A stretch of DNA of 36,812 bases from Escherichia coli (GTDB lineage Bacteria; Pseudomonadota; Gammaproteobacteria; Enterobacterales; Enterobacteriaceae), in assembly GCF_003334315.1 (NCBI RefSeq), contig NZ_QOWR01000048.1; one strand, 5' to 3'. A program made the position numbers and the translations under genes. The notes below the pieces were generated by a model that did no database searches, was not told the DNA's origin, and worked only from the letters and a program-made list of their open reading frames with translations. This document shows positions 17,506 to 17,604 of the stretch, piece by piece. Position 1 is the first letter of the stretch; the number at the start of each line of letters is the position of its first letter.

Positions 17506-17604
17506 AGCATCCTCGCTTTTAGACAAGACCTGCACAGTATACCACCGTTTACTGTGCAGATAATGACCAAAAGCAATATGCGTCACACTTTTCTGGTGAC
17601 AACG

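Follow-up and report, generated by a model that had tools for sequence, protein, structure and literature searches.

A close described parallel to the locus studied here is the fold-back inhibition of IS10, to which the arrangement in IS50 is similar. In IS10, transcripts that originate outside the element sequester the start signals of the transposase gene (Davis, Simons & Kleckner 1985, Cell 43:379, as cited in PMC13181058), and that source describes arrangements similar to IS10 in IS3. Here we analyze a dyad upstream of ydiH in Escherichia coli and propose, with a probability of about 45% and on the basis of predicted folds, that it is a fold-back helix that would mask the ydiH ribosome-binding site (RBS) on read-through RNA only.

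The window, by which we mean the whole stretch of 36,812 nt that was analyzed, has the gene order sufA–rydB–ydiH–menI–ydiJ with every gene on the minus strand, and comparison with NC_000913.3 indicated that the sequence around the repeat is identical to that of E. coli K-12 MG1655. The ydiH coding sequence (17505..17317, minus strand) encodes a 62-aa protein of the YdiH family (PF15930), and its ATG at window position 17505 corresponds to 1765122 in NC_000913.3. ydiH is a stationary-phase or stress-associated gene that is otherwise uncharacterized, and its RBS has a very high translation-initiation rate, one of the highest for any RBS measured in E. coli (PMC6498945). The gene upstream is menI (18015..17605, minus strand), separated from ydiH by a spacer of 99 nt. 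The stop codon of ydiJ and the start codon of menI share 4 nt (18012-18015), which suggests translational coupling and a ydiJ-menI operon, and it is the transcripts of this operon that the arrangement suggests as the source of any read-through into ydiH. A terminator scan of 17505-17605 identified zero terminator-like sites between menI and ydiH. On the other side of ydiH, the sRNA gene rydB (17151..17091, minus strand; Rfam RF00118, 81.6 bits) is followed by a hairpin with an 11-bp stem, AAACCCTTAAG...CTTAAGGGTTT, and a T-run on the minus strand (17059-17095). This hairpin is presumably the terminator common to rydB and ydiH, and the scan omits it because its loop is longer than 8 nt. A perfect 9-bp palindrome, TTAGATAATGGTTATTATCTAA (16946-16967), overlaps the -10 element of the predicted sufA promoter (ATCACA-16-GATAAT), and we take it to resemble the Fur box of the suf promoter.

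The inverted repeat in the menI-ydiH spacer occupies 17530-17559 (CTGCACAGTATACCACCGTTTACTGTGCAG on the plus strand) and consists of a perfect 10-bp stem, CTGCACAGTA / TACTGTGCAG, with a loop of 10 nt. The initial annotation of this DNA had placed the repeat at exactly these coordinates and some 25 nt before ydiH, and on re-reading the sequence the 3' end of the stem is indeed 25 nt from the ATG; the 9-bp stem and 12-nt loop that it gave are corrected here. The repeat sits, almost certainly, on the core of ydiH's own promoter, which is of the extended -10 sigma-70 type. The ydiH promoter reported by Druzhinin et al. (2015, PLoS Genet; PMC4488433) runs from -40 to +4, tggtcattatctgcacagtaaacggtggtatactgtgcagGtct, with the whole inverted repeat inside, and this published string matches the window exactly. 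In the tables of that study the ydiH +1 is 1765146 on the minus strand, 24 nt from the ATG, and the same tables contain no second start site within 1765000-1765299. Mapped onto the window via NC_000913.3, the transcription start site (TSS) is a G at 17529 (minus strand), the first base beyond the 3' arm. The evidence given in PMC4488433 is 5' RNA-seq that separates triphosphate, monophosphate and hydroxyl ends, together with primer extension on a plasmid construct carrying -100..+15, and triphosphate 5' ends are present at the ydiH +1. That study uses the promoter as a G-1G+1 model for primer-dependent initiation in stationary phase, when more than half of the ydiH 5' ends are at -1, bear a hydroxyl and are oligoRNase-sensitive, so that some ydiH RNAs begin with the final base of the 3' arm (17529-17530).

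Read on the minus strand, the 5' arm CUGCACAGUA (17550..17559) covers promoter positions -30..-21 in the spacer region. The loop AACGGUGGUA (17540..17549) covers -20..-11, with the TG of the extended -10 element (T at 17544 and G at 17543, -15/-14) and the first two bases of the hexamer, and the 3' arm UACUGUGCAG (17530..17539) covers -10..-1, with the TACT of the hexamer and the discriminator. The -10 hexamer, TATACT (17536..17541, minus strand, -12..-7), is close to TATAAT and lies 7 nt upstream of the experimentally mapped start site, in the range of 6-8 nt. No -35 hexamer like TTGACA was found at a spacing of 16-18 bp, with ATTATC standing at 17 bp, and for want of a usable -35 hexamer the consensus promoter scan misses the ydiH promoter. 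The missing -35 fits the -35-independent extended -10 promoters. Like sigma-70 promoters of that class (TGn), the ydiH promoter combines a TG at -15/-14 and TATACT at -12..-7 with no recognizable -35, but it departs from the class by two further features: TGGTCA(A-rich) at -40..-31, strongly conserved as a block, and a CA at -25/-24 that does not vary. A different candidate from the consensus scan, TTGTCA-16-CATATT at 17602-17575, is unconserved outside Escherichia, Salmonella and some Citrobacter, is absent as a start site from the tables of PMC4488433 and was not adopted as the ydiH promoter. Shimada et al. (2014) detected binding of the RpoD holoenzyme in the menI-ydiH spacer by genomic SELEX and printed these same hexamers, TTGTCA-16-CATATT, which are a sequence-based guess that lies further upstream. 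The TTGTCA of this predicted promoter is included in a small palindrome, GTGAC-GTT-GTCAC on the sense strand (17596-17608), that overlaps the menI stop codon and is kept in Escherichia, Salmonella and some Citrobacter but not in Enterobacter.

With the start site one base past the 3' arm, the principal ydiH mRNA is made without the hairpin. The hairpin had been described as lying on the operon mRNA before the ydiH RBS, and its position before the RBS holds; the repeat is, however, the ydiH core promoter and is absent from the principal mRNA (TSS 17529). A role as a stabilizer of that mRNA falls for the same reason, since the mRNA starts after the hairpin. The promoter-derived leader is 24 nt long, and the first 65 nt of the mRNA are less structured than shuffled sequences (MFE -6 kcal/mol, z +1.75). 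An unstructured leader of its own fits the very high initiation rate at the ydiH RBS (PMC6498945).

A scan with the YdiH alignment, limited to one genome per species, yielded 80 ydiH loci from about 20 enterobacterial genera, and the promoter block is present across all 80. In 56 of these loci menI is directly upstream of ydiH, with ydiJ before menI, and in the other 24 menI is missing from the 1.5 kb upstream of ydiH. The 24 loci (L056-L080 except L061) come from Kosakonia, Phytobacter, Kluyvera, Yokenella, Pseudocitrobacter and other genera. In Trabulsiella (L064, 1-3186), the only one of the 24 in which a pntB-ydiH-uspE context was seen in detail, ydiH and its promoter block are found between pntB and uspE and not between menI and rydB/sufA. 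We aligned 63 orthologues from about 20 genera and both genomic contexts (alignment A2), in which the 85 nt upstream of the ATG aligned well. Invariant or nearly so in this alignment are GT-G-n-TATACT, the GAGG of the Shine-Dalgarno (SD) sequence, the CA at -25/-24 (17553-17554, minus strand) and the TGGTCA block (17564..17569, minus strand, -40..-35), which is nearly invariant in both contexts and is followed in most species by an A-rich run. The spacer between TGGTCA and the -10 is 23 bp, too far for a -35 element. Comparison of the conserved blocks by hand with the consensus sequences of sigma-E, sigma-28, sigma-54, CRP, FNR, FadR, PdhR, IscR, MarA/SoxS and IHF gave no convincing fit. Judged from these alignments, the ydiH gene and its promoter behave as a single unit across contexts. 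In Intestinirhabdus alba (L016, 1160-1470) the ydiH -10 region is the exact site of an insertion of about 270 bp. At this locus menI still has the upstream half of the block (TATTGCTACTGGACAAAATCTGCGCGG...GTATATAC) beside it, the end of the insert (...CCTGAAGTATGACGGGTATAC) recreates TATACT and the local dyad is gone (z = 0.09). We take the insert (TGACCGGGGTGAG...) to resemble an ERIC/IRU element.

Taken alone, the 10-bp stem does not exceed what chance would give in this window. A dinucleotide shuffle of the window has 2.9 +/- 2.5 perfect inverted repeats with a stem of 9 bp or more and a loop of 3-20 nt, and the real window contains 24 nested matches at about 12 places, chiefly terminators. 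Further perfect repeats of at least 9 bp are located at 10057-10085, 22576-22598, 22759-22784, 30739-30770 and 1208-1234, and one of the window's other perfect repeats, AAAAATGGCGCACATTGTGCGCCATTTTT, looks like a bidirectional terminator. The short stem in the menI-ydiH spacer is the top of an imperfect dyad with 28-nt arms (17515-17542 / 17547-17574) that are 79% complementary. A sense RNA of 131 nt folds with an MFE of -49.1 kcal/mol (z = -4.9), which none of 200 shuffles equals, and the 89-nt sense segment in E. coli has a z of -8.35; the long dyad is well beyond chance. In full it extends for about 75 nt (17507..17581, minus strand), from -52 to +23 of the promoter, with 30 predicted pairs and the reported stem as its apex. 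It begins 23 nt past the menI stop codon. Its 5' strand is upstream of the ydiH TSS, and its 3' strand is the entire ydiH 5'UTR including the SD. Of 5426 E. coli genomes, 5422 have the repeat element, at a median of one place each, and it is thus not a dispersed repeat of the REP/BIME or ERIC type. An Rfam scan of 16000-19000 at permissive E-values detected no family at threshold over the dyad, where the only match was a generic miRNA hairpin (E = 0.27); elsewhere the same scan returned rydB and one other sub-threshold match.

The dyad is not spread evenly over the ydiH loci. In the menI-adjacent set (n = 57, comprising the 56 fetched loci and the window) the 89-nt region has a mean MFE of -27.4 kcal/mol and a mean z of -3.07, versus -15.6 kcal/mol and +0.05 at the 24 other loci (mean z -3.07 vs +0.10 in a repeat run). 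Six menI-adjacent lineages have a z near 0 (L030, L035, L037, L040, L042 and L055). When the E. coli structure is projected on the alignment, pairing in the menI-adjacent and other loci is 84% versus 50% in the core of the helix, 77% versus 52% in its middle and 76% versus 49% in its outer part. At least 11 of the 24 other loci carry an intrinsic terminator that is strong (stem of 7-12 bp and a T-run); it ends 84-101 nt ahead of the ATG and immediately precedes the promoter block. Among the menI-adjacent loci, 6 of 57 have terminator candidates, all of them weak (5-6 bp), and E. coli has none. Dyad and terminator therefore have complementary distributions, a contrast between groups that is confounded by phylogeny, as the groups are probably two clades, and that may be one ancestral event. 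From the orthologous promoters in the other context, which are without a dyad, we infer that dyad symmetry is not a requirement of promoter function.

Further information on the dyad comes from the alignment of orthologues, in which the arms vary between genera yet stay complementary. Complementary arms are found in E. coli (CTGCACAGT/ACTGTGCAG), in three Citrobacter (L013, L015 and L023; GTGCACAGT/ACTGTGCAC), in L039 (CTGACCAGC/ACTGGTCAG) and in L040 (ATCGTCAGC/ACTGGCGAT), and the arms of Huaxiibacter (L028; TTAGCCAGC/ACTGGTTGG) show three wobbles and a new A-U pair. We then scored a structure derived from E. coli on an alignment of 31 menI-adjacent sequences (A3). In the main helix (17581..17507; 30 pairs) 79.7% of cells are paired, and over all 37 pairs 74.5%, versus 33-47% in slid controls (20-47% for slid-partner controls overall). 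The covariation score of the 37 pairs is 0.214 versus 0.05-0.11 in slid controls, and none of 500 column shuffles matched the observed pairing and covariation. Parsimony on a menI+ydiH gene tree placed pair-keeping double changes on 10 branches, versus 0-4 in six slid controls, and counted 63 single-sided changes that keep the pair, versus 18-44 in controls. Pair-breaking events numbered 101, and the share of changes that keep the pair, 0.42, merely equals the best control (0.25-0.42). RNAalifold, run blind on the 31 menI-adjacent sequences, returned 4 consensus pairs only (-1.24 kcal/mol), indicating that the long helix is conserved as a tendency and not column by column.

These results bear on whether the symmetry has any function. 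It could be a chance or relic palindrome around a conserved promoter, with a single origin in the ancestor of the Escherichia-Citrobacter-Salmonella-Enterobacter group, that is slowly decaying. Such a palindrome would agree with a 9-10 bp stem that alone is within window chance, an RNAalifold consensus of merely 4 bp, the many pair-breaking events, the several lineages with z near 0 and a group contrast that is possibly a single event. We nonetheless consider it unlikely, given that a mean z of -3.1 is maintained over 57 loci despite heavy divergence at non-promoter positions, that several distinct arm variants are fully paired, that compensatory double changes number 10 where controls have 0-4, and that the pairing spans precisely the leader and the SD.

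The departures from perfect complementarity bear on whether the element is an RNA helix or a DNA-level dyad. For sense-strand pairing there are 161 G-U cells versus 68 A-C cells, counts that are not phylogenetically independent. The mean MFE of the sense strand is -27.4 kcal/mol versus -18.8 kcal/mol for the antisense strand, and the sense z is below the antisense z in 45 of the 57 menI-adjacent loci. These wobble-type departures favour a sense-RNA helix, and the preference is moderate. Significant structure is present on the antisense strand as well (z -2.31), which leaves some probability for a dyad at the DNA level, and the DNA palindrome is strand-symmetric. The dyad might be an operator for a dimeric or tetrameric repressor, with the arms at -30..-21 and -10..-1 as half-sites on the same DNA face, about 20 bp (two helical turns) between their centres, and the bound protein occluding the -10 and the TSS. 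The centre of the dyad falls in the core promoter, with symmetric half-sites over the promoter region, each arm is of the form CTGnnCAG, and regulation is plausible for a stationary-phase/stress-associated gene such as ydiH. However, the arms have no conserved motif and drift among close genera while still complementary, and the complementarity continues for about 35 nt per side, far past the size of an operator; together these make an operator quite improbable. Further points against it are the G-U departures that favour sense RNA, the lack of a ydiH regulator in an EcoCyc-derived table, a half-site spacing of about 20 bp that is unusual for a simple dimer, and a promoter that does without the symmetry in 24 other species.

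An RNA helix could also act on the ydiJ-menI(-ydiH) transcript as a processing or stability element. RNase III might cleave the ~30-bp helix, separating menI from ydiH and possibly unmasking the RBS, or a 3' hairpin might shield the menI mRNA from exonucleases after downstream cleavage. A long, near-continuous duplex does lie 23 nt downstream of the menI stop, in E. coli with 30 predicted pairs and small internal loops, which would amount to at least two helical turns. The helix is moreover found only with menI upstream, and no terminator follows menI. We still regard such an element as rather doubtful; neither ydiH nor menI is named in the supplements examined of PMC5371410, an RNA-seq study of RNase III, and the Term-seq supplements examined contain no 3' end for either gene. 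Cleavage or protection of this kind is compatible with the fold-back model.

It is very improbable that, as the initial annotation had proposed for a hairpin between menI and ydiH 25 nt from the ATG, an operon-internal hairpin attenuates transcription or stabilizes or modulates the ydiH mRNA itself, as the principal ydiH mRNA begins after the hairpin (published TSS), no Rfam family matches and no U-tract follows either the stem, where the next bases are GGTCTTGTC, or the long helix, where they are GAGGATGC. An intrinsic terminator or attenuator is ruled out by the missing T-run and the empty terminator scan of 17505-17605.

The fold-back model starts from what is already established, namely the promoter and its TSS, a dyad that exists and has a defined distribution across loci, and a menI-ydiH spacer that has no terminator. 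To these it would add transcription through menI into ydiH, folding of the helix in the cell and silencing of ydiH translation. One arm of the dyad is upstream of the TSS at 17529 and the other is in the leader and RBS (17581..17507). Since the TSS is in the middle of the dyad, both strands can be present only on RNA that was initiated upstream, and with no terminator after menI such RNA may arise by read-through. RNA entering from upstream as ydiJ-menI read-through would carry both dyad strands, and on this RNA the -52..-1 segment would pair with +1..+23, which is the full ydiH leader including the SD region. The paired leader would keep ydiH translation off on read-through RNA, and the promoter-derived mRNA, which would carry the descending strand only, would be translated freely. 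In this manner the element may insulate ydiH expression from upstream transcription, and where ydiH is found elsewhere in the genome an intrinsic terminator may do the insulating job instead.

Predicted folds agree with partial masking of the RBS. The SD, GAGGA (17510..17514, minus strand), whose GAGG is invariant in A2, lies near the base of the long helix. In the E. coli read-through fold the first G and A of GAGGA and the four bases after it are paired; 3 of the 5 SD bases are paired in all, and as the two central G's are in a small internal loop the masking would be partial. We also computed the cost of opening the RBS, defined as -18..+10 around the AUG. The predicted cost in E. coli is 16.6 kcal/mol on read-through RNA versus 6.0 kcal/mol on promoter-derived RNA. 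Over the 57 menI-adjacent loci the predicted means are 13.5 versus 5.2 kcal/mol and over the 24 other loci 7.5 versus 5.0 kcal/mol (Mann-Whitney on the differences in opening cost, p = 3e-7, uncorrected for phylogeny). The earlier idea that the hairpin modulates ydiH translation, which fails for a principal mRNA from which the hairpin is absent, may thus survive in a narrower form, confined to read-through RNA, with the computed rise in cost from 6.0 to 16.6 kcal/mol. The parts of the RNase III, Term-seq and nanopore papers examined hold no direct evidence of menI transcripts entering ydiH, nor of the helix in vivo. The text and legends consulted of PMC4488433 do not mention the dyad symmetry, the leader extension or a link to menI read-through, and no discussion of structure in the menI-ydiH spacer was found in the other literature searched. 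The promoter is already published, and only the fold-back idea is modestly new.

We tentatively suggest that the fold-back is a translational insulator, such that translation of ydiH would be limited to transcripts of its stationary-phase promoter, with the gene silent on ydiJ-menI read-through, and that the RNA device and the terminator replaced each other as gene and promoter moved between contexts. If this is true, fold-back logic of the IS10 type would be a general means to uncouple internal promoters from operon read-through. Should the fold-back hold, ydiH would provide a clean chromosomal case of a small stress-protein gene that stands behind a housekeeping operon with no terminator and is under the sole control of its own promoter, and terminator and RNA fold-back would be interchangeable insulators. 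With an RBS as active as that of ydiH (PMC6498945), which transcripts are translatable matters for any study of the gene. There is also a practical lesson, in that an intergenic hairpin before an RBS can be the gene's own promoter, a point settled here by the published TSS.

Compared with the terminators of the pntB-ydiH-uspE context, the E. coli dyad is found in the same place, directly upstream of or at the ydiH promoter block, and like the terminators in other genera it would presumably uncouple ydiH from upstream transcription. The means differ, in that the terminators of other genera stop transcription with a G+C-rich stem and a T-run, whereas the E. coli dyad is without a T-run and overlaps the promoter. 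Compared with IS10, the gene at issue is not that of a transposase at the end of an insertion sequence: ydiH lies on the chromosome behind a metabolic operon and encodes a small protein. The ydiH helix is much longer and imperfect, its effect on translation is computed and the two share no sequence relationship. What IS10 and ydiH have in common is the arrangement, which for ydiH is predicted: an inverted repeat straddles the gene's own TSS, transcripts initiated upstream alone carry both arms and have the RBS buried, and the gene's own transcript, which starts within the repeat, is translatable.
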